DNA of 64,000 nucleotides from Candidatus Woesearchaeota archaeon (lineage in GTDB: Archaea; Nanobdellota; Nanobdellia; Pacearchaeales; GW2011-AR1): contig CAYLOQ010000001.1 of assembly GCA_964385425.1 (NCBI GenBank), forward strand, positions 1,411 through 65,410. Reading direction: 5' to 3'. The notes under the pieces were generated by a model that did not search any database, was not told the origin of the DNA, and worked only from the letters and a program-made list of their open reading frames with translations. Shown here in pieces: positions 418 to 38,981 of this stretch (its first letter is position 1; each line of letters begins with the position of its first letter). The position numbers and the translations under genes were made by a program.

Positions 418-431
418 ACGCCCACGCCGAG
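418..431. repeat. Copy 1 of the GC-rich motif ACGCCCACGCCGAG (matches the tRNA-Asp 3' end)
   Basis: It is immediately flanked by a TATA-like box. The region 392-431 is nearly identical to 3191-3228, including TAGAAATCTTATTATATAAAGAT. It lies 36 nt upstream of the ATG of the partial ORF at 1-382. Confidence 0.7.
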
Positions 432-556
432 CGGTTAAGATTTGTTTAACGCCCTTATTTTTATCTTAAAATATACACGTATAATCCCTTTTTAAAATGG
501 GGTTGTTACCCAATGGGGTGCGGAAGATGAAATCATCTCAAAATTTTTTGTATTTT

Positions 557-1360
557 CTATATCCCACTCTGCCAATCTTTCAAAATATCCCTTGCTGCCC
601 TATCAGAATTAACTTCACCACCTTTTTTCAAAAAACCTTTTTTCTTTCCAATCTTTTCAATTAAATCCTCTGCATTATCAAATTTCATTTTATAAAATTC
701 CTCTAACTCTTTCTTATCGCTCTTTACAATTTCATTAAGTGCAAGTTCTGGATTCTTAACTTGATTATGCGACCTCCCACCAACCTTAACATGCCTTGCT
801 ATTTTTTCCTCATTTGTCGTAGAATATTCGTCAGAAGAAATAACCCCTGGAGAATCTAACAAGACTATACTTTCTGTAAGTCTTAATTTCTGAATCCCTT
901 TTGTAAACCCCGCCTCAGAACTTGTTTTCGCCGAATTCTTTCCAATTAAAAGATTAATCAAAGAACTCTTCCCAGTATTAGGATACCCAATAACCCCCAC
1001 CCGAACACGACGATAATCTCCTTCCAATTTCACCCTTGCTGCTTCTGCTTTAATTTTATTTCTTAACTCTGTAATTCCTGTTCTCTTTTTACATGAAACA
1101 AAAACTCGCGGATTCAAACTCTTGTCTTTTTTTCGCGTGAGGTCAGATTTATTCAAAACATAAATCATTTTCTTTCCTTTATCAAAAACCGCCTTTTCAA
1201 TTTCTTTATTTTGCATCTCTTTCACAAACCGCGCATCAAGAATCTCTAAAACAATATCAGAAGTCTCAATTATCTCCCCCAATAACTCAGGATATTTCCC
1301 TCTCTGCTTTCTGATATTCTTTAATCTTTTCCCAGAACGAGCTTGTCTCCTTGTTGCCAT
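557..1360 (-). CDS. Circularly permuted GTPase, RbgA/YlqF/Nug1-like ribosome-biogenesis GTPase
   Basis: The G4 motif NKSD precedes G1 GYPNTGKSS and G3 DSPG, the circular-permutation order. A DARF(V) motif is present, and the N-terminus is basic. Confidence 0.7.
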   Translation of the reverse strand: MATRRQARSGKRLKNIRKQRGKYPELLGEIIETSDIVLEILDARFVKEMQNKEIEKAVFDKGKKMIYVLNKSDLTRKKDKSLNPRVFVSCKKRTGITELRNKIKAEAARVKLEGDYRRVRVGVIGYPNTGKSSLINLLIGKNSAKTSSEAGFTKGIQKLRLTESIVLLDSPGVISSDEYSTTNEEKIARHVKVGGRSHNQVKNPELALNEIVKSDKKELEEFYKMKFDNAEDLIEKIGKKKGFLKKGGEVNSDRAARDILKDWQSGI

Positions 1361-1518
1361 AAAAAATTAAAGAGATAATAGTTTATTAAATAAACGCAAA
1401 CCAACAATCTTATAAACCTAGAATTTTGTTTAATATTATTATATATTGTTAAAGTCTTGGAGCTTAGCTACAAAGGCTTGGTTTCAAGAATAATTCTTGA
1501 AAATAATAATTAATTAAA

Positions 1519-2901
1519 ATGAAAACGTTTAAAGAACTCGGACTAAGTAGTGAGTTTGTATCTGTGCTTGAAAAAGACAAGATTACAACTCCTTCGGAAA
1601 TTCAGGAAAAAACAATTCCCATAGTCTTAGCAGGGCGAGATGTGATTGGAGGTTCTGCGACAGGTTCTGGAAAAACTCTTGCGTTTGCCTCAAGCATGAT
1701 AGAAAATCTTGAGAAAAGCGGAAGAATTCAAGCATTAATTTTAACACCAACAAGAGAACTTGCTGAACAAGTTTCAAATGCAATCTCAAAATTCTCCAGA
1801 CACAAAAAATTAAATGTTCTTCCTATTTATGGAGGAGTTAATATTAAATCTCAGATTAGAAAAATTCATAGCACAGATATCATTGTGGGAACTCCAGGAA
1901 GAATTTTAGACCACATGCGAAGGGGAACCTTAAATTTAGATTATGTTAAATCTCTTGTTTTAGACGAAGTTGATAGAATGTTTGATATGGGATTTCAAAG
2001 GGATGTTGAAAGAATTCTTGGTCAATGTCCCAAGAAAAGACAGACAATGCTTTTTTCAGCGACGATATCTGCTGAAATAAATTATCTTGCTAAAAAATAC
2101 ACTCAAAAACCAGCAGAGGTTTCTATTCAATCACACATCGACCCATCAAAACTTAAACAAACCTACTACAATGTTTTAGATGGTTTGAAGTTTTCATTAT
2201 TTGTTTATTTGTTAAAAAAAGAAAAAAATAATCTAGTAATGGTATTCTGCGGAACAAGACGTAATGTTGATTTTGTTGCAAATAATCTGATTAATCTTGG
2301 AATTAATGCGAAGGCGATTCACGGAGGGATGATCCAAAATAAAAGAACAAGAGTTATGGATGAGTTTAATTCAGAAAATGGTGTGAATGTTTTAGTGTGC
2401 ACAGACGTAGCTGCAAGAGGACTTGATATTTTTGGGGTGAGCCACGTATACAATTATGATTTACCAAAAACAAGTTCAGATTATATTCATCGAATCGGCA
2501 GAACAGCCAGAGCAGGACGAGATGGAATTGCAATTAGCATCTTATGCAGCAGAGATTATGAAAACTTTGGGAATATTTTAAGAGATAAAGAATTAAAAAT
2601 TAACGAGGTGAAAACTCCCTTTTTTGAAAGAGTTAGAATGATTACTAAAACTGGAAATAAAAAAAGATATTCTGATTCAAGGCAAAGATACCAAAGTCGT
2701 GGGAGAAGTAATGGACAAAGAAGAGATAGCAGAAGAAGTAAAAGTGGAGGGAGGAGTTTTAGTGGTGGAAGAAAATATAGTGATAATAAAGCAGATAGAG
2801 GAGAAAGAAAAAGTTTTGGAAGACATCCAACAAGAGGAAATGTTAAAAGAAAAAATTACAGAAAACATAATTTTAGAAGTGGTGGAAGTCAAGGAAGATG
2901 A
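1519..2901 (+). CDS. DEAD-box ATP-dependent RNA helicase with an RG/RS-rich C-terminal tail
   Basis: Q-motif TPSEIQ, motif I GSATGSGKT, Ia PTRELA, II DEVD, III SAT and VI HRIGRTARAG are all present. The C-terminus is a low-complexity R/G/S-rich tail. Confidence 0.85.
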   Translation: MKTFKELGLSSEFVSVLEKDKITTPSEIQEKTIPIVLAGRDVIGGSATGSGKTLAFASSMIENLEKSGRIQALILTPTRELAEQVSNAISKFSRHKKLNVLPIYGGVNIKSQIRKIHSTDIIVGTPGRILDHMRRGTLNLDYVKSLVLDEVDRMFDMGFQRDVERILGQCPKKRQTMLFSATISAEINYLAKKYTQKPAEVSIQSHIDPSKLKQTYYNVLDGLKFSLFVYLLKKEKNNLVMVFCGTRRNVDFVANNLINLGINAKAIHGGMIQNKRTRVMDEFNSENGVNVLVCTDVAARGLDIFGVSHVYNYDLPKTSSDYIHRIGRTARAGRDGIAISILCSRDYENFGNILRDKELKINEVKTPFFERVRMITKTGNKKRYSDSRQRYQSRGRSNGQRRDSRRSKSGGRSFSGGRKYSDNKADRGERKSFGRHPTRGNVKRKNYRKHNFRSGGSQGR

Positions 2902-2936
2902 TAAGATTAAAGAAAATTATTTTTTAATTCCTTTCC

Positions 2937-3182
2937 TCAATCAAACCAACCCAACTTCTCGTCCTTTGGCAATTTCTTTATTGCATACTCGCATTTACAC
3001 GCACCTGATTTGTCCCTGCACTGCTTAGCCCGAAGTAATTTCTTAAAACCTTTTTGAAAAACATATTTACTTCCCTTCCCCTCAGCATGCGTATTCATCC
3101 GCGCGTCAACATCTATCGTCACCCCTGTATAAAACGAACCATCCCCACATTCAAGAATATAAACATACCATTGTTTTTTCAT
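2937..3182 (-). CDS. GIY-YIG nuclease domain protein
   Basis: YVYIL...GSFYTGVT...R...H at the N-terminus fits the GIY-YIG pattern. It is a small 81-aa protein with a Cys-rich C-terminus. Confidence 0.65.
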   Translation of the reverse strand: MKKQWYVYILECGDGSFYTGVTIDVDARMNTHAEGKGSKYVFQKGFKKLLRAKQCRDKSGACKCEYAIKKLPKDEKLGWFD

Positions 3183-3214
3183 ATAATTATTTAGAAATCT
3201 TATTATATAAAGAT

Positions 3215-3228
3215 GCGCCCACGCCGAG
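3215..3228. repeat. Copy 2 of the motif (GCGCCCACGCCGAG) with extended conserved flanks on both sides
   Basis: The left flank (3191-3214) matches copy 1 and holds the TATA box of the GIY-YIG gene. The right flank (3229-3262) matches 9078-9104 and contains the hairpin GGACA-aaag-TGTCC. Confidence 0.7.
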
Positions 3229-3291
3229 GGTAGGACAAAAGTGTCCCCATTAGGGTAAAGAAAAAGGTGTCTACACCCCTAAAATTTGTGG

Positions 3292-4287
3292 TCACCTAGT
3301 TAATTTTTTTAAAGCTGAATATTCTTTGATCAATAAATCAATGGTTGGCCTTAGATTCCCTTTTGTTTGATACTCTTGTAAGGATTCATAATATTGTCTT
3401 TGATTTCTTAGATCAATATTTACTGGAGGAAAGTCATTTTTAAGTAAGATATTATTCAGCAACAACCTCCCAACCCTACCATTCCCATCAGCGAAGGGGT
3501 GTATATTTTCAAATTGGTTATGAACAACAGATGCTAATACGAGTGCAGGGTATCTTGATCTATTTTTATTATACCATCTGATAAGTTCATTAAGTAAAGA
3601 ATTTATTCTTGATTGAGGAGCTCCAAAATGAATTATATTCCCATAGCCATCTCTAACAACAACTTCTTGTCCTTTAATTCTGAATTTGCCTGCAAAATCT
3701 TTTGAATTTTTAAAAACAATTTTATGTAAATCTAAAATAAATTTTATTGATATATGTTCCCCTGTTTTTCTTATAAATTTAATAGCATCATTCACACCAT
3801 AAGTTTCTGCTATATCTTGCTTTGATTTTTTTGGCCATTTTCCCTTCTCCAAGATATCTTTTACTTCTTTTTTTGTTATTTCACTACCTTCTATTGCATT
3901 AGTATTATACGAAAAAAGCTCTGAAAAAGTTCTCCATTGTTCTTCCGATAAATGGATTATTCTTAATTTCTGACTCTTTTCTAGATTTTCAATCAGTTTT
4001 ATTTCTTTTTTTGATAACGGTGTTTTAAGAGGATCTTTAATTATTTTATATTGTTCAATTTCCTCGAGAATTATTTTTTCTGCTTTATCTAGCCTTCCTT
4101 TTAACTGTTCTTCATTTATATTTTTTCCTAGAAACTTCCTTATTTTATTTACTTTTCCATCTTCTCTAAAAGAATGTGCTAAATAATATTTTATTCTGTT
4201 TCCTTCCTTTCTCTTCTCGACATACATAACAACAAATAGGTGACTACATATATAAATCTTTCTATTGTATTGTCTACATACGCCCAC
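3292..4287 (-). CDS. Fic/Doc family protein (AMPylation-type Fic domain)
   Basis: Canonical Fic motif HPFADGNGRVGRLL. The real start is probably the internal Met near 4227 (MYVEKRK...), because the longest ORF overlaps the upstream repeat motif. Confidence 0.8.
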   Translation of the reverse strand: MGVCRQYNRKIYICSHLFVVMYVEKRKEGNRIKYYLAHSFREDGKVNKIRKFLGKNINEEQLKGRLDKAEKIILEEIEQYKIIKDPLKTPLSKKEIKLIENLEKSQKLRIIHLSEEQWRTFSELFSYNTNAIEGSEITKKEVKDILEKGKWPKKSKQDIAETYGVNDAIKFIRKTGEHISIKFILDLHKIVFKNSKDFAGKFRIKGQEVVVRDGYGNIIHFGAPQSRINSLLNELIRWYNKNRSRYPALVLASVVHNQFENIHPFADGNGRVGRLLLNNILLKNDFPPVNIDLRNQRQYYESLQEYQTKGNLRPTIDLLIKEYSALKKLTR

Positions 4288-4293
4288 GCCGAG
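4280..4293. repeat. Copy 3 of the motif ACGCCCACGCCGAG
   Basis: Upstream of the Fic gene. A TATA-like TTTATATAT box lies about 25 nt further toward the gene. Confidence 0.65.
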
Positions 4294-4333
4294 TGCTATG
4301 GGGTGTAGGACTTCGACTCCCTGTTAGGGAATC

Positions 4334-4347
4334 ACGCCCACGCCGAT
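4334..4347. repeat. Copy 4 of the motif (ACGCCCACGCCGAT variant)
   Basis: 40 nt from copy 3, between the Fic and pentapeptide genes. Confidence 0.6.
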
Positions 4348-4431
4348 AGTAGTTTGGGAGTAGTATAAGAGTGTTATAGTTGGAGAATTTTAATCCCTCC
4401 ATAGCTCAATGGTTCTGTATTAACCACTTAA

Positions 4432-5106
4432 CTATTCTTCACGAAAATCAAATTCTGGTGTAATGGCCTTTAATATAATCTTTTTTTCCCTATTCGTTAC
4501 AATAGTTTTTCTATACCCCCTATCTTCAAACTCACCCTCTCCAAATATTGCCGCTTGTATCCAGGGATTATCCCATAAACCTACCGATCCTCTAAGATCG
4601 GCCCCGCCAAACCTTACTCCATAGAGATTCGCATCTGTAAAATCTGCTTCTCTTAGATCAGCTCCATAGAGCTGAGCTTCACGGAGTTCTGTCTTTCTAA
4701 GACTTACTCCCCTTAGATCAGCCATGTGAAGAGTTACTCCTTCAAGATTTGCTAAACTAAGATCAGCCCCTTGAAGCCTTGCTCCTTTAAGATTAGCCTG
4801 ATAAAGCCTTGCTCCTTTAAGATCCGCTCCTTCAAGATTTGCATTTACCCCCCTTAAATAAGGCATATGAAGATCTCTTGCAATTAAACCTTGAAAATTA
4901 GAGTCTTCTATTGTTATTGGGTTCTCTCTGAAATAATCATTAATTAAATACTCTCTTAATACTCTAAAGCTCGGATGTCCACTTAAATTTAAATTCCTTC
5001 CCACTCTTCTAGAGAAATCTCTTCTTCCACTCAATATCCGCATAATTTCATCTGCAGTTATTGGTCTTAATTCAACACTGGTTTCTGTTTGTTCCATAAT
5101 TCCCAC
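4432..5106 (-). CDS. Pentapeptide repeat protein
   Basis: Tandem A(D/N)LxG pentapeptides, e.g. ADLKGARLYQANLKGARLQGADLSLANLEG... Confidence 0.8.
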   Translation of the reverse strand: MGIMEQTETSVELRPITADEIMRILSGRRDFSRRVGRNLNLSGHPSFRVLREYLINDYFRENPITIEDSNFQGLIARDLHMPYLRGVNANLEGADLKGARLYQANLKGARLQGADLSLANLEGVTLHMADLRGVSLRKTELREAQLYGADLREADFTDANLYGVRFGGADLRGSVGLWDNPWIQAAIFGEGEFEDRGYRKTIVTNREKKIILKAITPEFDFREE

Positions 5107-5141
5107 ACAAATTCTTCCTTTTTAAACTTTATGATATAAAT

Positions 5142-5155
5142 ACGCCCACGCCGAG
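5142..5155. repeat. Copy 5 of the motif ACGCCCACGCCGAG
   Basis: Immediately adjacent to the TATTTATATCA TATA-like box upstream of the pentapeptide-repeat gene. Confidence 0.65.
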
Positions 5156-5249
5156 AATAATACACTTTTGCATATCTAAGAGGTGTACTTTTGTGCCTCT
5201 TTAAATGACTAAATGAATAATGTTTAAATAATTTTGTATAAAAATAAAT

Positions 5250-8006
5250 TTATCTATATGTTACTTTTCTTATTTTATAATGTTTCTTAATCTTTTCCCT
5301 TTTAATTTCATTTTTTAGAATCATCCTGTTTAATTTTTGCTGCATTTTTGATGATTTCTTATCTTCATAAAATCTTTTATTAGAATAATCCTGCCCAAAC
5401 CTTATTTCTCCACGGATATTAAGAGATTTGAAAAGGACAATTATCATTAAAACAATAAACCCTATTAACAAAATTAATTTAGTGAAACTCCCAAATAATA
5501 TTGATGAATTTTCTTGAGTATTAATGTTATTTGATAGGATTTCTATAAGGAAAGAAGAGCCATAATATATTGAAATGATTAATGCAATTATTGAAACCAA
5601 AGAAATTATGATTATGAAAACTGTTTTTATGATTCCTCCAAAATTTGACTTATGATAATTGTATGGTTCTCTCTTCCTTTTCATCACTGAAATTATTATA
5701 AAAGTAGCTATTGCCAATAAAGATATGATTCCAATAAATAAAATAGGAATTTTTCCTTTAGGACCAAATGGAAAATATTCTCCTATATCAGGAATTCCTA
5801 TAATTCCTCCTGTTATTGATGGTGTATCTCCTTCATTATCTATTACTCTACCCCCACCAGAACTACTAGCACCACTTATGGTAAAGGTGTCAAAGAATTT
5901 ATCAGTTCTACTCCCTAAATTATAATATCCTGCTTCACATTGGAAAATATATGATTGAGTTGCTATAAATGTAGAAGGAACAAGAATTGCTTTATTTACC
6001 TTAAGAAGTGTCCTGTTAATCATCTGATTAAAATTAAATGAGTTATAATTATTAACTCCATCATTTAAATAACAAGTAAAATCAACTTCTTTTTCAACAA
6101 CCTGAGAGTCCTCTACTTGTGCAGATATTGAGCAAGTCATTTCGCTTCCTGAACTTGCTTGGGCAGGGCAATCAACCGAAAGATGGAAAGTCCCTGTTTT
6201 GGATTCTACTCCTTCAAGAGCAGAAGCTTGTCTTTGTTGGACTTGTAAATTTAAATCACTTGAATATCTACATGAATCTGAATTATTTACTATTATTGTG
6301 AAAGTATTATATGGTTCTACATCTGCAAATCCAATTAAAGTCATTCTATTGGTTTCTTCAAAGAAAGAAACATCTACTTCAGAAGTTCCTGCGTGTTTAA
6401 AATAAGGTATTGTAATTATATCATTTATTGTGCTTGAACTTCCTGCATCAGTTTCAATTCTTTTTTCTATACATCCTGCTATAACATCTCTATCTGTATT
6501 TTCAAAACAATATCTTGCTATAAATTTTGTTTCGTCTATTCCAAAATAATCATAAGTTATATTTACCTCCAATTCATTACAAGCACTAATTGATGAATCA
6601 AATGCACTTGTAGATATATTCACAACATCAATTATTTTAATATAGGGTGTTCCAACTTCATGCCCATAATAATTAAATTCATCTGATTCTAACTCTAAAT
6701 CTTGATCAAAATCTTCTAAATGTAAATGAAAATTAATATCAAAATCATTCCCTCCTACCACATGTGTAGGTAATAAAAACTCCTCTGAACATCTTTCAAC
6801 TACGCCCTCATCAATTTGTGGTTTTACAGAAGTCCTCATGATCACACTTTCTCCTTGTAATGTTTCCCCTGTGTCTAAACTTATTGGGAAAAAATGTTGT
6901 TCTAAGGTATCATCATCAAAACTTACTTCATTCACAAAAATAAACTTTTCTTCTGTGAAAGTATTATTTAATAATATACATAATGATGCAGGTTTTCCAC
7001 CAGTTAAAAATCCTTGACCATTTGTAGTTTTATTTCCTTCTACAGAATTATTGAAAGTACCCCAAGAAATATCTTCTTGGTTTATTCTTGTTGGTCCATC
7101 TGTTATTTGAATTTTTCCACCGAATTCATCTTTTAAATAAACAGCAGGGTACATCCCTTGACTTGCAGTAAAATCATCATGGAATCCTGTAGCGTTAGCC
7201 CATTTTTTATTTATCATAAAATCATTTAAATCATCAATTAAAAATCCCCTAGTTCCCTCCCCTGAAGAACCCTCTGCTGAGTTAGAACATTTATTGTCAT
7301 TCCCTGTTGGACAAAAACAATTAATATCTGTTAGATATTGAACCCCTGCTTTAAAATGGGCATCATCTATTTCAAAATCTACATCTAAATCTCCATTATG
7401 ATTTGATATTTCTTCTATTCCTGAAACAATAGTATTCCCACCAATTGTTTCTATATCGATTCTACAAGAAGCACCAGCAGTTCCAATTTCTGTTCCGTTT
7501 TTTACTTTTGCAGAAATTGCTAAAGTTGTTCCAATGAAGTTTTGAGTGCTTATTACAATCTCTTCTATTAATAAATCACTTCCTGTTGCAGCATTTATTG
7601 TTGCATTACTTTGTCCTGTTAAACCTCCTCCACCAGATAGTGTTGCATTAAGAACATTTCCATAAACAGATATATAAGAAGAATTAATTACGAAAGATTC
7701 AAAGAATTCATTATTTGGAGATGTAGTTGAACTTGGAGTTGTGCCTGTTGAAGTATCTACCACATGACCTGTCGCATTTGTCCAATTCACAGTATATGCT
7801 TGATTTTTCTCATTTCCTGTAGTTATTTCCATTTCTAAAGTCGCAGTTGAACCTTCAACATAGACTTCAGAATCTAAAACTGCCGTTGAAGCAGAAACAA
7901 AATTTATTAAGAATATAAATGAAAACAAAGATATTCCTAAAAGTAGGATCACAAATTTAGTTTTCATTTTTACCCCCCTCCCAATAATGTAATTTTGCTC
8001 TACCAA
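5250..8006 (-). CDS. Large secreted/surface protein of about 900 aa with an N-terminal signal peptide, three C-terminal TM helices and a basic cytoplasmic tail
   Basis: Probable start at the MKTKFVILLLGISLF... Met near 7967. The protein is Thr/Ser/Asn-rich with many N-x-S/T sequons. The C-terminus has hydrophobic segments followed by a K/R-rich tail, the same topology as the giant protein at 42624-53513. Confidence 0.6.
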   Translation of the reverse strand: MVEQNYIIGRGVKMKTKFVILLLGISLFSFIFLINFVSASTAVLDSEVYVEGSTATLEMEITTGNEKNQAYTVNWTNATGHVVDTSTGTTPSSTTSPNNEFFESFVINSSYISVYGNVLNATLSGGGGLTGQSNATINAATGSDLLIEEIVISTQNFIGTTLAISAKVKNGTEIGTAGASCRIDIETIGGNTIVSGIEEISNHNGDLDVDFEIDDAHFKAGVQYLTDINCFCPTGNDNKCSNSAEGSSGEGTRGFLIDDLNDFMINKKWANATGFHDDFTASQGMYPAVYLKDEFGGKIQITDGPTRINQEDISWGTFNNSVEGNKTTNGQGFLTGGKPASLCILLNNTFTEEKFIFVNEVSFDDDTLEQHFFPISLDTGETLQGESVIMRTSVKPQIDEGVVERCSEEFLLPTHVVGGNDFDINFHLHLEDFDQDLELESDEFNYYGHEVGTPYIKIIDVVNISTSAFDSSISACNELEVNITYDYFGIDETKFIARYCFENTDRDVIAGCIEKRIETDAGSSSTINDIITIPYFKHAGTSEVDVSFFEETNRMTLIGFADVEPYNTFTIIVNNSDSCRYSSDLNLQVQQRQASALEGVESKTGTFHLSVDCPAQASSGSEMTCSISAQVEDSQVVEKEVDFTCYLNDGVNNYNSFNFNQMINRTLLKVNKAILVPSTFIATQSYIFQCEAGYYNLGSRTDKFFDTFTISGASSSGGGRVIDNEGDTPSITGGIIGIPDIGEYFPFGPKGKIPILFIGIISLLAIATFIIISVMKRKREPYNYHKSNFGGIIKTVFIIIISLVSIIALIISIYYGSSFLIEILSNNINTQENSSILFGSFTKLILLIGFIVLMIIVLFKSLNIRGEIRFGQDYSNKRFYEDKKSSKMQQKLNRMILKNEIKREKIKKHYKIRKVTYR

Positions 8007-8163
8007 CAGGCCTAATTCTAATTAATTTTGCCCCCTTTAATTCTGCAAGAACGACGGCAACAGTGTTCCTAGAAATTTTTAAACCTCTTGCAATATCAAT
8101 TATTGTAAGTCCGTCTGTATTTTTTCTTAGAAGACTCTTAACTAATTCACCTTTTGTTTTCAT
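7957..8163 (-). CDS. Small winged-helix (MarR/ArsR-like) DNA-binding regulator
   Basis: 68 aa; LTIIDIARGLKISRNTVAVVLAELKGAKLIRIRPVG is HTH-like. It overlaps the start of the downstream surface-protein gene, so the two are probably co-transcribed. Confidence 0.5.
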   Translation of the reverse strand: MKTKGELVKSLLRKNTDGLTIIDIARGLKISRNTVAVVLAELKGAKLIRIRPVGRAKLHYWEGGKNEN

Positions 8164-8166
8164 TGT

Positions 8167-8266
8167 GCGTTAACGCTTAGTTTTATAAGTTATCTTTAAA
8201 ACTTTGTTTTATAAGTCATTTTTAAAGTTTAATGATATAAGTTATCTTTATTAATTATCTTTAATG
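8167..8266. promoter_or_regulatory. Palindrome GCGTTAACGC plus three to four tandem 25-26-bp iterons (TTTTATAAGTTATCTTTAAA) upstream of the wHTH regulator gene
   Basis: Direct repeats at 8181-8202, 8207-8227 and 8233-8253, with a partial fourth at 8254-8266. A 10-bp perfect palindrome lies at 8167-8176. Confidence 0.5.
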
Positions 8267-8390
8267 TTTATTATTGGTGCACAATAGTTTATAAATGTTT
8301 TTAATCGGTTTATGATATCAAAAAGATTTCAATAAAGCCCAGAAAGAGCGTTGGGATAATTTTAAAAAGACTTAACCCAGCTTATTTTTT

Positions 8391-8906
8391 ATGGATAATC
8401 GTAATGGAGAAGTTAGTCCTCTTGAAATAATTAGTGGGCAAGGAAGTATGGAAACCCCCGAATCATTTAGAGATAAGGCGAGGGGGTGGGTTGTAGATAC
8501 ATCCATAGCAGTTCTATGGAGTAATCTTGTTTTTGCACCAGGTGATTATGTTTTAGGTGGTTTGTGGGGGGATGAATTTGTTAAACAAAGAGTAGGAATG
8601 AGTTTGTTTAATTTGGCGTTTGGTGGGGTATTTGGAAAATTTAGAAATTATTGGACAAAAAATGTAATGAAGGCCACACCAAATAGTTCAAGATTTTACA
8701 AGGCAGTTAGTGATACCACAGCAGGTGCTATTTTTTATGGTCCTATTTATGTTGGACTTATTAAATCCCATGGGGCTTCATGGGAAGAAACATTTGCAGC
8801 ATTAGGGGGAGGACTTCTAACAGCCGCAATCACAGGTAGGCCCTATGGTTTGTGCCAAGATAAATGGAGAAAATTATTTGGAGTTAGGCCAGCTCTAGAA
8901 GAATAG
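8391..8906 (+). CDS. Hypothetical protein, paralog of 21771-22325
   Basis: Shares aligned blocks (K.R.GM..F, ASWEE/ASLEE...GGL, PYG...WRKLF/PF.EFWRTKVF) with the ORF at 21771-22325. Confidence 0.5.
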   Translation: MDNRNGEVSPLEIISGQGSMETPESFRDKARGWVVDTSIAVLWSNLVFAPGDYVLGGLWGDEFVKQRVGMSLFNLAFGGVFGKFRNYWTKNVMKATPNSSRFYKAVSDTTAGAIFYGPIYVGLIKSHGASWEETFAALGGGLLTAAITGRPYGLCQDKWRKLFGVRPALEE

Positions 8907-9063
8907 TTATAAATAAAACTCCCTCTACTCTCCCAGAAAGGGCGTTGAGAAGGTTTATTCTATGTGTTTATATGGATCTCGTTTCATATTGTGTACAATT
9001 TACAGATCTTTTTATAGAACCTGTATGTTTATTGTACACCCCACTAAAATGCAAAAATGTAGT

Positions 9064-9077
9064 ACGCCCACGCCGAG
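9064..9077. repeat. Copy 6 of the motif ACGCCCACGCCGAG with a hairpin-bearing extension
   Basis: 9064-9104 is near-identical to 3215-3262 (GAGGGTAGGA[CT]AAAAGTGTCCC). It lies between convergent genes, so it is not obviously a promoter. Confidence 0.65.
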
Positions 9078-9150
9078 GGTAGGATAAAAGTGTCCCAGTT
9101 GGGGGGTTAATATAAATCTAAACTCACCTTTAATAGAAGCTCAATAGTAA

Positions 9151-9459
9151 TTATTTCTGAACCGATAATAAATTCTTAACTGCTCCAACTAAAGAACCCT
9201 GTTGAAAATTTTTTGCTAAACTATCTATAACCGCAAGTAATCCAGGAGTATAAATCGCAATTTGTGCAACATTTGATAATTCAATTTCTTGACCTCTTAA
9301 TACCCCTGGTGCTAAAAAGCTACCTAAACAAATTGCTCCCTGAACAGCATAATTTCGGATTATTTCTCCATTACTTCTATTTTGAGAATCGTATAGCTCG
9401 TCATTGCTTCTAGCACTATACCATTCTTTTTGATCATGCAAAAAATTTTCTAATGCCAT
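9151..9459 (-). CDS. Hypothetical protein
   Basis: 102-aa ORF with a TATA-like box upstream. I recognise no motif. Confidence 0.4.
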   Translation of the reverse strand: MALENFLHDQKEWYSARSNDELYDSQNRSNGEIIRNYAVQGAICLGSFLAPGVLRGQEIELSNVAQIAIYTPGLLAVIDSLAKNFQQGSLVGAVKNLLSVQK

Positions 9460-9523
9460 GGAAATAAATGATAATAAGTGATTTATAAACTTTTCTATTT
9501 TGTCTTAATTCTTGAGTAACAAA

Positions 9524-9537
9524 GCGCCCACGCCGGG
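9524..9537. repeat. Copy 7 of the motif (GCGCCCACGCCGGG, the variant matching the tRNA in 13 of 13 core nt)
   Basis: Lies between two minus-strand genes, about 45 nt upstream of a TATA-like box for the ORF at 9151-9459. Confidence 0.6.
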
Positions 9538-9576
9538 GATAGAACTTTTTGTTAGATTTGGTGGGAGTTAAATTGT

Positions 9577-9996
9577 TTATTTACTTCTTTCAGAAACATT
9601 ACAATCAACATCAACATATCTTACTTCTACTTTAAATCCCAATTCTCTCAATTTATGTATTGTATTCTTTTGTTGATTATCCAGATGGGAAGAATTTGAT
9701 TTTACTTCCACAAAAGAAATTTCCTTTGTGTCTTGATCGATACAAACTAAATCAGGAAAACCAAGAATATTATCCTTTATTATTTTGATAACTTCTTTAA
9801 TTCTCTTTGTATCAATTTCCTCCCAAATCATCATATTTTGGATTCTTCCAATCATGGTTGTATTTATTGGGCTTATAACTTTATCATTAGTAAAATCAAC
9901 CCTCACAACATTTTGATTTTCTTCTTTCTTAAGTTTTGAAACAATATAATCTTCTGCAATTCTTCCTAAACTTGTTGTTGATATATCTTCATTCAT
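9577..9996 (-). CDS. Hjc-like PD-(D/E)xK nuclease (Holliday-junction-resolvase / restriction-endonuclease fold)
   Basis: N-terminal G..AE..V motif, then PDLVCIDQD...VEVKS, which matches the PD-x(n)-(D/E)xK catalytic core of the Hjc family. It has a longer insert than canonical Hjc. Confidence 0.5.
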   Translation of the reverse strand: MNEDISTTSLGRIAEDYIVSKLKKEENQNVVRVDFTNDKVISPINTTMIGRIQNMMIWEEIDTKRIKEVIKIIKDNILGFPDLVCIDQDTKEISFVEVKSNSSHLDNQQKNTIHKLRELGFKVEVRYVDVDCNVSERSK

Positions 9997-10044
9997 AGAA
10001 TATGGTGTTGAATTTGCCTATTTATACCTTGCTAAATGTTATGT

Positions 10045-10575
10045 TCAAGAAATAAATCTAAAACACTCATTTAAGCATTCTTTTTGAAAGCTATAGATTT
10101 TATTGTAATGTTTGATTAGAAAATAATCATTGGTGTATCTATTAAGAGGACTGTATTCTCCTTTTGGATATCTTGAAGAATTTACATGAGATGATAAAAT
10201 TTGTTGTAAGAGAAAATTTGGAGTAGTAATTTTCCCAACCCTTAAATTAGATTTACCAGAATCTATTTCAGATAATAGTGATTTGATTACTTCTATGATA
10301 GCTAAAAATATTTTTTCATTATCTATAGGAGTATTCTCTAAAATTTTAGTTTCTTCTTTCAAATCGTCATTCACCATATTTTTGTAAATATCTAGAGTTT
10401 TATGGCCATGCTTGAAGATTCCAGTAATACCTTTAGTTGTCTTTTCCACACTTTGTTGTAATAAGAAAATAGATTGAGGATATTTTCCATTTTCATAAAG
10501 TATCTTGGAAGACTCCAAATCTTCTAAGGCCATTTTTATAAAATTTTCATTTTCTTCTTTCATTTTTAACCACAT
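10045..10575 (-). CDS. HEPN domain protein
   Basis: The N-terminal helix pair ALEDLESSKILYENGKYPQSIFLLQQSVEKTTKGI matches the HEPN N-terminal pattern. It overlaps the start of the upstream secreted-nuclease gene by 10 nt. Confidence 0.55.
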   Translation of the reverse strand: MWLKMKEENENFIKMALEDLESSKILYENGKYPQSIFLLQQSVEKTTKGITGIFKHGHKTLDIYKNMVNDDLKEETKILENTPIDNEKIFLAIIEVIKSLLSEIDSGKSNLRVGKITTPNFLLQQILSSHVNSSRYPKGEYSPLNRYTNDYFLIKHYNKIYSFQKECLNECFRFIS

Positions 10576-11552
10576 AAACTCTCACAGGGAACTCCATCAT
10601 CATCACCATCTAATTCATTAACATCATAACTACAAGCATCAAATACATCCATTACTTCTGAACAAGAATTGAAATCTCCACAATTGTAAACATTTCCTCC
10701 ACAGCCAACCGTATTTACTATAACATCATCAGTCTTTGCAGATGAAGTATCCCATATCCCTATTTCTTTACCTTTTGCAATACTCTCTGCATCTTCTATT
10801 ATTGAACACTTAGAAGTATCTGGAGAATAAGGATAAGCTCTCCCATAACCTTGTAGAACAATTCTTAGATTAATAAAACAATTAGCTAAATCTGTGCAAT
10901 CTTTTTTAGTATAGATATATCTTAATAATCTTCCATACCTGTCTGTTTCTGAAATATCTTTTTCAAGATAAACTTCTTTATTAAAAATAAGATTTGTAAG
11001 ATAATCTTTTGCTTCTTGATAACCATCTTCATAAGTCTCGGGGGTATCAATGCAAATTAATCTTACTCTTTCACCTGAACTTAATTCTATAGTATCCCCA
11101 TCAATAACTCTTGTTACTTTATACCAATTTTTAGTTTCTTCAAACGTTGGAGTTTCAATAATTTCATCAGAAACAATTTCTTCTTCTGGCTCTTGGATAC
11201 ATTCTCCATTTTCACAGCCATAAAGACAATGATAATTATTAAACCACGAAGTGCCGCAATCTGAATATTGATATTTTTTTTGGATATAATTCCCATTACA
11301 TCCATATTTATCTAAATATTCTGCTTTACAATTTTCCTCTCCAATGTTAGAAATAATTTTCCCAGTTGGTATCGGGTTTTCTCTCTCTTCTTCAGTTTTC
11401 TCAGGTATAGTTTCTTCTTGAATATCCTCTTCAGACGCTTCTTCTTTAATAACATTAGAAGTGATTGTAGGTTCTTCATCTGGAAGAAAAATTCCTGCAA
11501 ATGCGAAAACAAGAACAATTCCAATAACCCATAATGCTGTTTTTGTTTTCAT
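10566..11552 (-). CDS. Secreted staphylococcal-nuclease-like (SNase/thermonuclease) protein with a C-terminal Excalibur Ca-binding domain
   Basis: Signal peptide and Cys-rich N-region. The SNase core is VIDGDTIEL...VRLICIDTPE..., and the Excalibur motif is CGDFNSCSEV...DGDDDGVPCESLC. Confidence 0.75.
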   Translation of the reverse strand: MKTKTALWVIGIVLVFAFAGIFLPDEEPTITSNVIKEEASEEDIQEETIPEKTEEERENPIPTGKIISNIGEENCKAEYLDKYGCNGNYIQKKYQYSDCGTSWFNNYHCLYGCENGECIQEPEEEIVSDEIIETPTFEETKNWYKVTRVIDGDTIELSSGERVRLICIDTPETYEDGYQEAKDYLTNLIFNKEVYLEKDISETDRYGRLLRYIYTKKDCTDLANCFINLRIVLQGYGRAYPYSPDTSKCSIIEDAESIAKGKEIGIWDTSSAKTDDVIVNTVGCGGNVYNCGDFNSCSEVMDVFDACSYDVNELDGDDDGVPCESLCG

Positions 11553-11556
11553 TTAA

Positions 11557-12312
11557 TCAGAGTCCACTACTACCTCTTATATCACATTTAGTTATATTTT
11601 TTTCAATTTTACAATAAATGTTTGGTTCGTAGTCAATTGGTTCTGGGAGGATTGTATCACAACCACCACTACAATAAACTAAAATCTGTAGATTATATTC
11701 TGTATTAAATCCAAGTCCAGAAATGATATAATCTTTTGATTCCCCAATTCCCACAGAATTATTTTCTTTGTAATATAAAAGAAACCATGCTTCAGCTTCC
11801 CTTATAATAATGGAATTGGTGCTGGATAAATCTAAAGTTAGCTGTTTGGTTTCCTTAAACAAAGAAGGAATCTCTCCTATCCATATTCCACCCCTCTCTA
11901 AACCAAGAATACGATAGTAAACTAATACATTATAGGCGAGGTTATCTCTCGAATTACTAACAGATATATTTAATGTTTTTTTAATGGGATCAGAGACTGG
12001 TTCAGATACAACAATCAAAGGATTCTCTTCATTGGTTAATTTAAAAACAACCCAACCACTTAAAAGCCCAGAAACTAGCATTCCAATTATTGTTAATACT
12101 GTCAACCTTAATTGAAATTTATGAGTTTTAAAATTAAGATATTGTCGCTGGAGTCTATCATCATAATTGGGAGCTAGACCATTAGGATAATTTCTCTCAT
12201 CTTTCCTTGCTCTTCTATGTCTCCACCTTTCCGCTTCATCAAGATATTTGTCAAAAGCTTTGTAATCTCTTTTTTCAAACCAGTTTTTTATTCTATTCCA
12301 TTCTTTTCCCAT
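11557..12312 (-). CDS. Membrane protein with a single TM and an extracytoplasmic domain
   Basis: Basic N-terminus, then the TM segment LTVLTIIGMLVSGLLSGWVVF. No recognisable motif. Confidence 0.45.
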   Translation of the reverse strand: MGKEWNRIKNWFEKRDYKAFDKYLDEAERWRHRRARKDERNYPNGLAPNYDDRLQRQYLNFKTHKFQLRLTVLTIIGMLVSGLLSGWVVFKLTNEENPLIVVSEPVSDPIKKTLNISVSNSRDNLAYNVLVYYRILGLERGGIWIGEIPSLFKETKQLTLDLSSTNSIIIREAEAWFLLYYKENNSVGIGESKDYIISGLGFNTEYNLQILVYCSGGCDTILPEPIDYEPNIYCKIEKNITKCDIRGSSGL

Positions 12313-12424: not shown

Positions 12425-13276
12425 TTGTATATGATTGTCAAAGCAAATTATTCTAATAAAGATAGTCTCTATACACAATTTAAAGAGAGTATGAAAATAA
12501 CCTCTAAACTGGATTCTGCAGAGAAAGGTTCTGAAATAAGACTTGATTTATCTGGAATTGGAAAACTTTTACCTTGTTCAATTGTTCTTTTATCAAATAA
12601 AATAATTGAATGTAGAAAAAAAGGAAAAAAAGTTAGCATAATCTATCCTAAAAATCTTTTAATTTCAAGGTACCTTGTTGATTTGGGCTTTGGATCTGAG
12701 TGGAATGGAAAGCTAAGAAAAAATTGTTATCCTATTGCTTCTTTTACAAACAAAGAAGACTTATCTAAAATAACAAATGATATGATTAATGCTATGAATA
12801 GGGTTATACCGAAAGCTTTTGGGGGAGGGGTGATGTATTTATTATCAGAGGTAATTGATAATGTTGAAGAACATTCCAGATTTGAATACGCTTCCGTAAT
12901 GGCTCAATATTATAGAAAAGATCACATTCTTGACATATGTATTTTAGATGATGGGATTACAATTCCAACTCTTTTTAGAGAAAACAAGATTAATTTTATT
13001 AGTGATAGAGATGCTATCCATAAAGCACTTGGTGGAACTTCAACAAAAAAAGAAGGTGGAAGAGGATTTGGATTGAGAACCTCTAAAAAATTAATTCTAA
13101 GGGGTTTGAGAGGTGAATTACATATAATATCAAGAAATGGTTTTGTATCTCTTAATGCCAGGAGAATAGAAGGAGAGAGAACACCTCTGATAAAAAAATC
13201 CTTCAAAGGAACAATGTTATATTTTAGATTTAGGGTTCCTAAGAAAACTTTAAATATCCATGAATATACAGAGTAA
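12425..13276 (+). CDS. GHKL-superfamily (histidine-kinase-like) ATPase
   Basis: N-box EVIDNVEEHS, G1 DDGITIP and G2 GGRGFGL. No His-phosphotransfer domain is evident. Confidence 0.6.
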   Translation: MYMIVKANYSNKDSLYTQFKESMKITSKLDSAEKGSEIRLDLSGIGKLLPCSIVLLSNKIIECRKKGKKVSIIYPKNLLISRYLVDLGFGSEWNGKLRKNCYPIASFTNKEDLSKITNDMINAMNRVIPKAFGGGVMYLLSEVIDNVEEHSRFEYASVMAQYYRKDHILDICILDDGITIPTLFRENKINFISDRDAIHKALGGTSTKKEGGRGFGLRTSKKLILRGLRGELHIISRNGFVSLNARRIEGERTPLIKKSFKGTMLYFRFRVPKKTLNIHEYTE

Positions 13277-13592
13277 TATGAAAAAAAAAACATTTCTTTT
13301 ATTTGATTATTTCCAAAATAATGTGGTGATTCGTAATCGAATGAGAGAATTTTTTAAGAAAGTAGAAAAGGAAAAAGCAGAGGATATAGTAATAGATTTT
13401 AAAAATATAGACTTTATTTCTCGTTCTTGTAGCGATGAGTATTTAAAACTTAAAGCAAAATCCAAAAAATTCTTTAAAGAGACGAATGTCAAAGACAATG
13501 TAAGAAAGATGTTGGAACAAGTATACAAAAGTCTAATTCATGTTGTTTATGAATCTAATTCAAATAAGAAATTCATTCCCATAAAGCATTAA
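13260..13592 (+). CDS. Small STAS-like (DUF4325-like) partner protein
   Basis: 110 aa. IDFKNIDFISRSCSDEYL resembles a STAS/anti-sigma-antagonist core. It overlaps the 3' end of the GHKL ATPase gene. Confidence 0.4.
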   Translation: MNIQSNMKKKTFLLFDYFQNNVVIRNRMREFFKKVEKEKAEDIVIDFKNIDFISRSCSDEYLKLKAKSKKFFKETNVKDNVRKMLEQVYKSLIHVVYESNSNKKFIPIKH

Positions 13593-13704
13593 ACTTATTC
13601 TGTAAATCGGAAGGGCTTATATGAGTATAAATTGTTGTGTATCTATCCTTGAATGTCCCAAGAGCTGTTGAACTTCTCTAAGGAATTGTAACACAAAGTA
13701 TATA

Positions 13705-13776
13705 CGCCCACGCCGGGAGTCGAACCCGGGTTACATCCGCGACAGGGATGAGTCATAGCCGTTAGACCACGTAGGC
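13705..13776 (-). tRNA. tRNA-Asp (anticodon GUC)
   Basis: The reverse complement folds as GCCUACG / D-arm / CAUCC-CUGUCGC-GGAUG (anticodon GUC) / CCGGG-UUCGACU-CCCGG / CGUGGGC + discriminator G. CCA is not encoded. Confidence 0.85.
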
Positions 13777-14127
13777 ACAATCATCAATGTTAGAATTTGT
13801 TTTTAAAGTTTTTGTTAAGGTTATTGGTTATGGTTCAATGGTTGAAACAATATTTGCTATAATAGAAGAGAATAACCCAAAAGCAGCAATTAATAATCCA
13901 ACATTGTCTAAAGCATTTAATTGTAGTAAAAGAATTATGAAGTAGATGAATATAATAAAATTGATTATTTGTGAAAAGATAGATAACGCATCCCCAACCT
14001 TCATTTTATATTATCGCTCTTATTATCCCATAAACTAATAAACCCAAGGCGATAATTCCCAAAATCCATGCGATGATTTGAAATATTTCTAAAGTCCTCT
14101 TTTTCATATTAGATTGAATTTCTATTT

Positions 14128-19676: not shown

Positions 19677-19727
19677 CTAACATATTTGTTCTTAATTTTT
19701 TTAAAATATTGTATTCTCCAAGATATA

Positions 19728-21625: not shown

Positions 21626-21707
21626 GCCCGTATCGCATAGTGGTTATTGCACAAGACTGGAACTCTTGGCCCTTCGGGGCTCCCAGGTTCAATTCCTGGT
21701 GCGGGCG
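21626..21707 (+). tRNA. tRNA-Ser (anticodon GGA), type II with a long variable arm
   Basis: GCCCGUA acceptor, anticodon stem CAAGA/UCUUG with loop CUGGAAC, 14-nt variable arm, T-arm CCAGG-UUCAAUU-CCUGG, 3' UGCGGGC + G. Confidence 0.85.
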
Positions 21708-21770
21708 TGATGTTACTTCTAAGTTAAGACAAAAGGAAGGGTTTAAAAATCACTATCTAATTGAATTTGT

Positions 21771-22325: not shown

Positions 22326-22420
22326 CCCCCTAACTGAGACACTTTTATGCCTCTCTTGGCGCGGGCGTTTTTTATCTTTTACTACAACAATATTTAAAAA
22401 GGAGTTATCGTCTTAATTTT

Positions 22421-38977: not shown

Positions 38978-38981
38978 CATT

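Follow-up and report, generated by a model that had tools for sequence, protein, structure and literature searches.

Three adjacent nuclease-family genes downstream of a tRNA-Asp gene in a DPANN archaeon: probably a patchwork of independent accessory genes

Introduction

Direct repeats of the 3′ end of a tRNA usually mark its gene as the target of repeated site-specific insertion, and tandem accretion at tRNA genes is known both from 'gene capture' in Sulfolobus and from the integrase-less cis-mobilisable elements (CIMEs) of streptococci. The present study concerns a locus of possibly similar kind in an archaeon assigned to Candidatus Woesearchaeota, namely a run of three neighbouring minus-strand genes of nuclease superfamilies (VRR-Nuc, HEPN and SNase-Excalibur) located at positions 9577-11552 of a 64,000-nucleotide (nt) stretch of contig CAYLOQ010000001.1 (assembly GCA_964385425.1), hereafter referred to as the window, downstream of a tRNA-Asp gene and among short copies of its 3′ end. 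Ghaly et al. (2022, PMC9668308) have also described integrons and integrase-less attC clusters (CALINs) from Archaea, Nanoarchaeota among them.

Stand-alone VRR-Nuc proteins of bacteria and phages are dimeric Holliday-junction resolvases (PMC4103454), and a Gln that is specific to the VRR-Nuc family and bonds the Lys was described by Pennell et al. (2014; PMC4103454). FAN1 is set apart by a two-helix insertion between strands β1 and β2, giving a fold order, αβααββαβ, that the same authors considered 'likely unique', and they proposed that, with the insertion, dimerisation is prevented and the specificity moves away from Holliday junctions and towards 5′ flaps (PMC4103454). In the HEPN-T variant (PF05168) an acidic residue replaces the His of the HEPN motif and a conserved His is found elsewhere, and the abortive infection protein AbiV has been linked to HEPN-T (Anantharaman et al., PMC3710099). 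Secreted SNc-type nucleases have been proposed as salvage enzymes of Patescibacteria, and the use of extracellular DNA has been proposed for DPANN archaea (PMC11495043, PMC7414124).

An earlier note on this DNA, based on the letters alone, had described positions 9151-11552 as a nuclease-rich block consisting of an Hjc-like PD-(D/E)xK nuclease, a HEPN protein and a secreted SNase-Excalibur nuclease, with defence, scavenging of extracellular DNA or recombination housekeeping as possible roles. The analysis reported here points to three independent accessory genes and not to a single system.

Results

Three neighbouring genes of nuclease superfamilies

Three neighbouring minus-strand open reading frames (ORFs), at 9577-9996, 10045-10563 and 10566-11552, all belong to nuclease superfamilies according to the ORF list and Pfam, which bears out the earlier description of three consecutive nuclease-related genes. 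The accompanying domain calls held for PD-(D/E)xK, HEPN and SNase-Excalibur, though not for Hjc. Searches of NCBIfam, PADLOC and PHROGs gave families in agreement with those of Pfam.

9577..9996, minus strand: stand-alone VRR-Nuc PD-(D/E)xK nuclease of 139 amino acids (aa) with a predicted FAN1-type two-helix insertion (Pfam)
10045..10563, minus strand: solo HEPN protein (HEPN-T type, PF05168), 172 aa with the start as revised; 176 aa in the mechanical ORF, which extends to 10575
10566..11552, minus strand: SNase-Excalibur nuclease, 328 aa (Pfam SNase PF00565, 53.3 bits; cut-off 21)

The order of minus-strand ORFs is 11557-12312 (251 aa), 10566-11552 (328 aa), 10045-10575 (176 aa), 9577-9996 (139 aa) and 9151-9459 (102 aa), the block start of 9151 taking in this last, fourth ORF, which was absent from the earlier note. 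As about 6 of the approximately 60 genes in the window are of nuclease type, three in a row would be expected by chance in about 3% of random orders, and the run is only mildly unusual. The GC content is 30% in the block and 36-37% at 16-26 kb, the window overall being about 30-37%. The juxtaposition is better accounted for by an insertion-prone, tRNA-anchored accessory stretch than by shared function, and the block is probably a patchwork of three independent accessory genes downstream of tRNA-Asp and not one system. This reading is founded on the domain identities and intact catalytic residues of the three proteins, the lack of a conserved gene order, an insertion or deletion (indel) relative to a related genome, the recent transfer of the HEPN gene and the presence of tRNA-derived repeats.

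Gene order in relatives and an indel at the tRNA-Asp locus

The SNase-HEPN-VRR-Nuc arrangement did not recur among 12 other HEPN, 2 SNase and 3 VRR-Nuc loci. No SNase, VRR-Nuc or MNT gene was found beside the HEPN orthologues at the 12 other loci, where neighbours were Laminin_G/Sua5, NosD/HNH_3, Fic/UvrD, HNH_2/kinase/resolvase, a 115-aa ORF or DUF8203. At the two loci with full-length SNase homologues the next gene was HNH-like or SLFN_AlbA_2; the upstream genes (including that at locus L011) were not similar to the 251-aa protein, and the gene downstream of the L011 homologue was not HEPN-like. The VRR-Nuc loci were searched for with a smaller, less diverse alignment of relatives. One relative, in a Woesearchaeota genome (L014 2515-7614), lies between a Bsp6I/C5-methyltransferase pair and an HNH_2 gene, a neighbourhood that looks like a defence or mobile context, and another, in a Pacearchaeota genome, is fused to a zinc ribbon.

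The only close VRR-Nuc orthologue was found at locus L003, where the order is SerRS, a small membrane protein, tRNA-Asp, VRR-Nuc and a repeat copy (7059-7071). On DNA alignment, the 3.7 kb of the window from 13701 to 10001 corresponded to 41 nt in L003, the absent stretch encoding the STAS-like, HATPase_c, 251-aa, SNase and HEPN proteins. The 3.7 kb, SNase and HEPN included, is therefore an indel relative to L003. A motif search found no repeat copy between HEPN and VRR-Nuc, and simple recombination between the known copies therefore cannot explain the indel. Separated by gaps of 4 nt and 2 nt, the 251-aa gene, SNase and HEPN are probably transcribed together, the 251-aa gene probably coming first. 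A TATA-like element for VRR-Nuc is located within the 48-nt spacer after HEPN, and this gene is a putative transcription unit of its own.

Separate gene histories and mobility of HEPN

The identities between genes of the window and their counterparts in other genomes were as follows (amino acid identity, then identity at third codon positions).

HEPN, window versus L004 (a Nanoarchaeota bin): 85%; 0.83
ABC transporter, window versus L004: 49%; 0.38 (saturated)
HEPN, window versus L024: 92%; 0.87
VRR-Nuc, window versus L003: 69%; 0.58
SerRS, window versus L003: about 55-56%; 0.43

The HEPN gene was 84-94% identical at the DNA level to its four closest orthologues, with values of 90-94% for copies from genomes in which silent sites of other genes are saturated. 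Its silent-site identity lies far above that of the ABC transporter from the same pair of genomes, which shows that HEPN has recently been passed on horizontally. For VRR-Nuc a fainter signal suggests transfer too, while SNase has no close relative by which transfer could be judged, the closest being about 50-58% identical and near saturation.

A promoter, TTTAAATA, located about 30 nt upstream, and a 3′ element, GAATYTTTAACTCTC...GATTGTGCCAYGATGG...CGGTYGGRGCGT, are common to the other HEPN loci, and the window copy has lost both. In 5 of the 12 other loci the gene adjoins tRNAs or tRNA-derived repeats (6 of 12 with the repeat of L024, the origin of which is unproven), as follows.

L024 619-1294: HEPN cassette flanked by a 32-nt direct repeat (tRNA origin unproven)
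L025 1486-3566: HEPN flanked by 50-nt copies (three) of the 3′ half of the adjacent tRNA-Thr
L030 762-1487: HEPN between two tRNA-Ser genes
L006 6001-6684 and L031 50-716: HEPN at most 80 nt from tRNA-Ser or tRNA-Gln

HEPN may accordingly be pictured as moving among DPANN genomes as a single-gene cassette of about 0.65 kb that usually lands beside tRNA genes, with only the coding sequence surviving in the window, 2 nt behind the SNase stop. Lacking a promoter of its own in this position, it would be expressed by read-through. At L008, a HEPN orthologue is located directly downstream of a Fic gene.

Repeats of the tRNA-Asp 3′ end

The features of the array are listed below.

13704..13777, minus strand: tRNA-Asp(GTC) (ARAGORN; Rfam, 56 bits), its 3′ end at 13705-13717 being the first motif copy and the anchor of the array
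9525..9537, minus strand: exact 13-nt repeat of the tRNA-Asp 3′ end (CCCGGCGTGGGCG), located 40 nt past the stop codon of VRR-Nuc
9065..9077, minus strand: motif copy CTCGGCGTGGGCG, within a 56-nt long form at 9063-9118
12425..13592, plus strand: HATPase_c (12425-13276) and STAS-like DUF4325 (13260-13592) pair, inside the tRNA-Asp-to-repeat segment and on the strand opposite to the block
11557..12312, minus strand: 251-aa single-pass membrane protein, 4 nt upstream of SNase by ORF spacing
9151..9459, minus strand: 102-aa orphan ORF, in its own segment between the repeat copies 9065-9077 and 9525-9537
5156-9064: segment with a 918-aa surface protein, a wHTH protein and an AlaE-like protein, closed by the copy 5143-5155
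419..5155, minus strand: rest of the array, with GIY-YIG/DEAD helicase/GTPase, Fic and pentapeptide-repeat segments

The motif C[CT]CGGCGTGGGCG was present in eight co-oriented minus-strand copies in the window (419-431, 3216-3228, 4281-4293, 4335-4347, 5143-5155, 9065-9077, 9525-9537 and 13705-13717), against 0.02 expected, and no further copies were found in the 10 kb beyond the window start. Three copies share the 56-nt long form, and the similarity of the copy at 9525 can be followed over about 21 nt if 3 mismatches are allowed. The seven copies outside the tRNA sit 30-126 nt past co-oriented stop codons, each then followed by an A/T-rich, promoter-like stretch, and the resulting 13-kb array consists of 7 segments of 40 nt to 4.2 kb with accessory genes. 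Motif copies had been suggested to bound the three-gene block; the copies are real, but those at 9525-9537 and 13705-13717 enclose six genes (STAS-like, HATPase_c, 251-aa, SNase, HEPN and VRR-Nuc) and not just the three, and those at 9065-9077 and 9525-9537 enclose only the 102-aa ORF.

A related arrangement was seen at a second tRNA gene, where tRNA-Ser(GGA) is followed by an AlaE-like gene (21771-22325) and then by a 56-nt element ending CTTGGCGCGGGCG (window 21626-22369). This element is about 80% identical to the long forms at 9063-9118 and 3214-3269, and its copy at 22355-22367 differs from the tRNA-Ser 3′ end by 2 mismatches; a second AlaE-like paralogue (8391-8906) lies inside the tRNA-Asp array. 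The pattern fits repeated site-specific insertion at tRNA genes. Searches of Pfam, PADLOC and PHROGs with the ORFs of window positions 1-13.7 kb brought up no integrase or recombinase family.

Two other readings of the repeats were considered. They are not tRNA halves, having no T-arm, and ARAGORN and Rfam call just two true tRNAs. An attC-like nature was unsupported, as by-eye inspection of the inter-gene elements revealed no consistent RYYYAAC...GTTRRRY pair or imperfect palindrome. No structure common to the repeat contexts emerged from RNA folding, and two scans of viral contigs with 15-nt motifs yielded no more than single hits in unrelated contigs, compatible with chance.

As for the genes of the array, the HATPase_c protein scores 27.6 bits in Pfam, and the pair with DUF4325 gave strong matches to phage families without assigned function (phrog_3364, E 8e-41; phrog_20761, E 1e-7). 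The overlapping HATPase_c and DUF4325 genes resemble an anti-sigma factor with its antagonist. The 251-aa protein has a single hydrophobic segment (residues 66-93 by hydropathy) and no family match in Pfam, NCBIfam or PADLOC; the 102-aa ORF had zero matches in these three and PHROGs. The Fic protein (3292-4287, minus strand) matches the PADLOC candidates PDC-S04 and SoFic at E ~1e-33, and the motif copy at 4281-4293 overlaps its longest possible start. An 81-aa GIY-YIG ORF (2937-3182, minus strand) that is present in the source annotation, a fourth small nuclease-family gene of the array, comes right after the copy at 3216-3228. Three to four tandem 26-nt A/T-rich repeats, which could be operator or iteron-like sites, are present at 8170-8263 between the divergent wHTH (7957-8163) and AlaE-like (8391-8906) genes.

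The 139-aa protein is a VRR-Nuc with a FAN1-type fold order in its model

The 139-aa protein matched VRR_NUC (PF08774) with 42.7 bits (cut-off 23.8; E 6.7e-11), and its relatives in L014 and L015 match PF08774 too. It had previously been regarded as an Hjc-like PD-(D/E)xK protein; the PD-(D/E)xK assignment stands, whereas the family is VRR-Nuc and not Hjc. No match to the Hjc family PF01870 was obtained in the Pfam scan even at E<=1, no Hjc chain was among its PDB sequence matches at E<=10, and in Foldseek Hjc was not the nearest structural neighbour of the model, ranking below VRR-Nuc and FAN1. Hjc identity is thus ruled out by profile, PDB sequence search and structural ranking, and the full-length alignment to canonical Hjc envisaged in the earlier note is not seen. 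Nor is the suggested housekeeping role as Hjc supported. No canonical Hjc or MNT gene was found among nearly all window ORFs of at least 100 aa, a scan that covers 64 kb out of a genome no smaller than 505 kb.

The atypically long insert that had been pointed out in this protein is real: strands 1 and 2 are separated by a pair of helices, at residues 43-58 and 63-75. The AlphaFold model derived from the alignment of relatives is confident (predicted local distance difference test, pLDDT, 88.6) and has the order α1, β1, α, α, β2, β3, α, β4, which gives the protein, as modelled, the FAN1-type fold order αβααββαβ, and all of the best Foldseek matches of the model (22/22) were FAN1. A bacterial protein with FAN1_HTH, VRR_NUC and exonuclease domains aligned to residues 50-129, through the insertion (E 4e-7). 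The catalytic E, PD and ExK and the conserved Gln after the Lys are all present, P81, D82, E97, K99 and Q109 being invariant and E15 nearly so among 20 aligned sequences.

Relatives are few. HMMER retrieved just 36 at E<=1e-3 from 1.8 billion representative proteins, only one of them close (69% identity), and 2 full-length matches were found among 185,579 species genomes. The C-terminal core matches phrog_5702, 'Holliday junction resolvase' (3.8e-7), and viral contigs of IMG/VR gave only generic-core matches. The protein would be a minimal Mg2+-dependent structure-specific DNA endonuclease. As the two-helix insertion gives the FAN1 fold order, it is predicted by analogy to be a monomer cutting flaps or branched DNA and not a dimeric Holliday-junction resolvase.

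The HEPN protein carries a variant site

The HEPN assignment was upheld on checking against profiles, with a PF05168 match of 38.5 bits (cut-off 22) and HEPN-fold structural neighbours. A sequence search of the PDB gave 1wol at E 1e-4. The nearest Foldseek neighbours of the AlphaFold 2 model (pLDDT 79.6) were 1wol (ST0689), 1ufb (TT1696), 2hsb (AF0298), 1o3u (TM0613) and 3o10 (sacsin HEPN), the first two at probability 1.0; the E-values were just 0.016-0.035. About 30 orthologues of 59-92% identity were found, all annotated as HEPN-domain protein only; the gene is absent from viral contigs of IMG/VR.

In the alignment of 18 sequences (the window protein and 17 orthologues; residue numbers are those of the mechanical 176-aa ORF), 17 of 17 orthologues begin at the equivalent of M5 (ATG 10563), and DNA similarity to the orthologues extends from start to stop codon exactly (10563..10045), the flanks being dissimilar. 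The 176-aa start was therefore dropped in favour of M5, which leaves a 2-nt gap after the SNase stop and no overlap, so that HEPN probably starts 2 nt after that stop. An overlap with the SNase start had been claimed; it would lie at the SNase 3′ end, and only with the first ATG (10575). The 162-aa start chosen by a gene caller (M15) was rejected, as it would remove the invariant K6 and N11.

Invariant residues in the alignment are D19, E44-K45, H58, H130, R135-Y136-P137 and H156. The Rx4-6H motif, for which a check had been proposed, was absent in its canonical form from 18 of 18 sequences, R135 being followed by YPKGEYS with no His at +5 to +7; position +5 after R135 is acidic (E/D) in 14 of 18 sequences by manual count. 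AbiV models all scored below their curated cut-offs (PF18728, 12.5 versus 27.1 bits; TIGR04498, 15.7 versus 27 bits, E 0.014), and PADLOC AbiV matched residues 5-66 only (21.5 bits, 3.7e-5). The absence of an adjacent MNT partner was confirmed, with no NTP_transf_2-type gene in the window or at 6 other loci with called genes, and neither an antitoxin RNA nor an antitoxin protein was identified. The protein probably binds RNA, or may cut it, as a dimer via the variant site (Arg135, the acidic +5 and His58), and might serve as a defence or addiction factor. A defence role is no more than possible, as the canonical catalytic motif is absent.

The SNase-Excalibur protein belongs to a large family

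The 328-aa protein consists of an N-terminal anchor or signal (residues 1-27), an acidic linker, a Cys-rich module, the SNase domain (about 146-273) and a C-terminal Excalibur Ca-binding motif. It matched S. aureus thermonuclease chains at E 4e-11, and its catalytic and Ca-binding residues D151, D153, R164, D169, T170, E172 and R208 are invariant in the alignment (reference residues in S. aureus: D21, D40, T41, R35, E43 and R87). The earlier view of it as a signal-bearing thermonuclease with an Excalibur domain stands for the SNase domain and the hydrophobic N-terminus; the Excalibur motif is intact though its profile is sub-threshold. PF05901 scored 19.6 bits, below the cut-off of 22, while DxDxDGxxCE is complete (D315, D317, D319, G320, C323 and E324) and invariant in the alignment, and many close homologues carry a precomputed PF05901 assignment. 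By hydropathy residues 1-27 are hydrophobic, with K2 and K4 ahead, and this segment could be an export signal or an uncleaved membrane anchor. With 5923 homologues, many of them SNase plus Excalibur and named 'thermonuclease family protein' in Nanoarchaeota and other archaeal bins, the protein is an ordinary member of a very large family. Its score against the NCBIfam NucI equivalog was 70.6 bits, short of the cut-off of 250. A protein of identical sequence is encoded on a 505-kb metagenomic scaffold (ENA ERZ23499938, scaffold_2).

The protein is predicted to be a Ca2+-dependent nuclease, held at the cell surface or released via its N-terminal segment, and most likely breaks down DNA or RNA outside the cell to salvage nucleotides and phosphate. 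Scavenging by a nucleotide auxotroph, as had been suggested, is plausible in its first part, with precedent in the literature, but nucleotide auxotrophy is incomplete in this organism, as purE, purC, purB and two AICARFT/IMPCH-type (purH-type) genes are located 13-19 kb beyond the window start (L013 15084-20068). The window itself encodes a thymidylate kinase, a long ThyX-like protein, a ParB-CE protein and a nucleoside 2-deoxyribosyltransferase (18416-21482 and 38588-39049).

Other content of the window

The window encodes the archaeal proteins aIF2-gamma, aIF5B and ribosomal protein S6e, and close homologues of the genes under study bear names such as Nanoarchaeota, Pacearchaeota or Woesearchaeota archaeon, which marks the organism as an archaeon of DPANN type. 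The DNA gyrase B gene (38982-42149, minus strand) is interrupted by an intein (Intein_splicing match, residues 434-856), with GyrA at 34545-36977, and a giant ORF of 3629 aa is found at 42624-53513 (minus strand). A 'phage metallopeptidase' domain protein and a MazF/PemK toxin are encoded at 61499-61975 and 63247-63603 (minus strand), and a HicB-HicA pair lies just outside the window start (L013 13290-13761).

Discussion

The three genes themselves are ordinary; the interesting parts of the locus are the integrase-less, tRNA-anchored cassettes and the stand-alone FAN1-like VRR-Nuc. Several points weigh against taking the block as a patchwork assembled by insertion at tRNA-Asp. The 4-nt and 2-nt spacings imply co-expression and could reflect a functional link. 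Just one close VRR-Nuc orthologue was available for comparison, and with no repeat copy between HEPN and VRR-Nuc the indel is unexplained by simple att-site recombination. The 13-kb array holds no integrase or recombinase, insertion at the tRNA being inferred solely from the repeats, and its segment nearest the window start encodes a DEAD-box helicase and a GTPase that have the look of core genes. As regards the individual proteins, HEPN lacks Rx4-6H and may thus be devoid of catalysis altogether, and the FAN1-like reading of VRR-Nuc rests on the AlphaFold model and alignment lengths.

The tight spacing of the 251-aa, SNase and HEPN genes would be expected if the block were a cooperating defence or abortive-infection module, in which a surface or secreted DNase, a HEPN RNase and a structure-specific DNase were co-expressed against invading DNA. 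Such a module could also draw on the weak AbiV-like matches of HEPN (PADLOC 3.7e-5; TIGR04498 0.014), the match of SNase to the PADLOC candidate 'SNc+LTD' at 1.4e-18, the SoFic-like Fic protein among the nearby cargo and a run that chance would produce in just ~3% of orders. It is nevertheless considered very unlikely, as the three genes were never together at the HEPN, SNase and VRR-Nuc loci examined, VRR-Nuc differs in history and is preceded by a putative promoter of its own, the matches to AbiV models are only partial and stay under the curated cut-offs, HEPN has no Rx4-6H, and an SNase that, as predicted, faces outward could not act with cytoplasmic partners. An unlikely, though somewhat less remote, explanation is that VRR-Nuc is a housekeeping Holliday-junction resolvase replacing Hjc, its position at tRNA-Asp being ancestral and SNase and HEPN having been inserted later. 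The order SerRS, tRNA-Asp, VRR-Nuc is indeed kept in the L003 genome despite a SerRS identity of only ~55-56%, no Hjc was detected among the scanned window ORFs, the bacterial and phage stand-alone enzymes are dimeric resolvases (PMC4103454), and phrog_5702 bears that name (3.8e-7). A housekeeping enzyme would not, however, be expected to belong to so rare a subfamily (36 matches per 1.8 billion representatives; 2 full-length in 185,579 genomes) whose other members lie in restriction-modification or HNH contexts. VRR-Nuc has moreover diverged less than the neighbouring SerRS, silent sites included, suggesting a more recent exchange; the same two-helix insertion is proposed to block dimerisation and Holliday-junction cleavage in FAN1; and the tRNA 3′ end and the repeat bracket VRR-Nuc in both genomes.

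That the tRNA-Asp-to-repeat segment (13703-9538) is a single, decayed integrated virus or plasmid that brought in all six genes was judged the most improbable of the explanations. The tRNA 3′ end and its exact 13-nt copy delimit the segment, GC content is low, HATPase_c and DUF4325 match PHROG families, and VRR-Nuc is a 'virus-type' nuclease. The same boundaries in L003 nevertheless hold VRR-Nuc alone, so that the content was assembled in steps, and the history of HEPN is independent and much more recent. HEPN is absent from IMG/VR, where VRR-Nuc finds matches to its generic core only, and the segment encodes no integrase, capsid or replication gene according to Pfam, PADLOC and PHROGs.

A further and rather doubtful proposal is that DPANN archaea (Pacearchaeota and Nanoarchaeota) carry tiny, integrase-less cassettes of a kind not previously described. 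These would be 0.5-4 kb long, often made up of one gene together with its promoter and a conserved element at the 3′ end, and would insert by tRNA 3′ ends (Asp and Ser here; Ser, Thr and Gln elsewhere), forming arrays like a tRNA-anchored integron with HEPN, FAN1-like VRR-Nuc, Fic and AlaE-like genes as cargo. VRR-Nuc, kept beside tRNA-Asp in two diverged genomes, might take part in cassette insertion. Arrays of tRNA ends without an integrase, which recur at further tRNAs and in further genomes, suggest a simple and unrecognised route of gene flow in tiny genomes, and the exchange between distant DPANN lineages of a solo HEPN without the canonical motif implies selection for some function. The 139-aa archaeal protein, which in its model reproduces a fold order thought peculiar to FAN1, offers a minimal system for the effect of the insertion on substrate choice and a lead on the origin of the FAN1 nuclease module. 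SNase is the nucleic-acid-scavenging enzyme to be expected of such organisms. For annotation, these results avoid the labelling of the VRR-Nuc gene as 'hjc' and the mistaking of a chance neighbourhood for a defence operon.

Comparison with known systems

The 139-aa protein resembles FAN1 (PF08774; PDB 4qbn, 4qbo and 4qbl) in Pfam family, in the E...PD...ExK residues with the Gln, and in the two-helix insertion, but it consists of the nuclease domain only, without SAP, TPR, HTH or UBZ domains, and its host is archaeal (DPANN). Its two helices are ~16 and 13 residues long, compared with ~10 and 18 in FAN1, and the I/L-G/P linker dipeptide of FAN1 is not evident. From Hjc/Hje (PF01870; PDB 1gef, 1hh1, 1ob8 and 2wcw) it differs in the lack of any profile or sequence match, in carrying the VRR-Nuc-specific Gln and in the two-helix insertion, which is not present in Hjc. 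The HEPN protein is like the HEPN-T proteins (1wol, 1ufb, 2hsb and 1o3u) in profile, helical bundle and variant site (R135, acidic +5 and the alternative invariant H58), and its structural neighbours are those reported as the top ones of AbiV. Unlike HEPN-T and AbiV, it has an insertion of ~45 residues that separates the second core helix from the C-terminal half, and the AbiV models match just its N-terminal 60 residues, under the cut-offs. SNase shares its ligands, N-terminal export or anchor segment and DxDxDGxxCE with the secreted SNc/thermonuclease-Excalibur proteins of Patescibacteria, DPANN and Gram-positives (S. aureus Nuc), but differs from other SNc-Excalibur proteins in that an acidic linker and one Cys-rich module precede the nuclease domain, the number of modules varying among homologues.

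The array as a whole resembles the captured segments of Sulfolobus and the streptococcal CIMEs in its co-oriented repeats of a tRNA 3′ end downstream of the tRNA, and in accessory segments that differ between relatives. It differs from them in having no integrase or split int, repeats as short as 11-13 nt, segments reduced to 40 nt-0.45 kb or a single gene, and a 56-nt long form that is also found at tRNA-Ser. With integrons and CALINs it has in common single-gene, mostly promoter-proximal cassettes that end in an element like a recombination site, the lack of an integrase, and a cargo likewise enriched for toxin, defence and signal-peptide proteins. The elements of the window, however, copy a tRNA end, and their anchor is a tRNA gene instead of attI.

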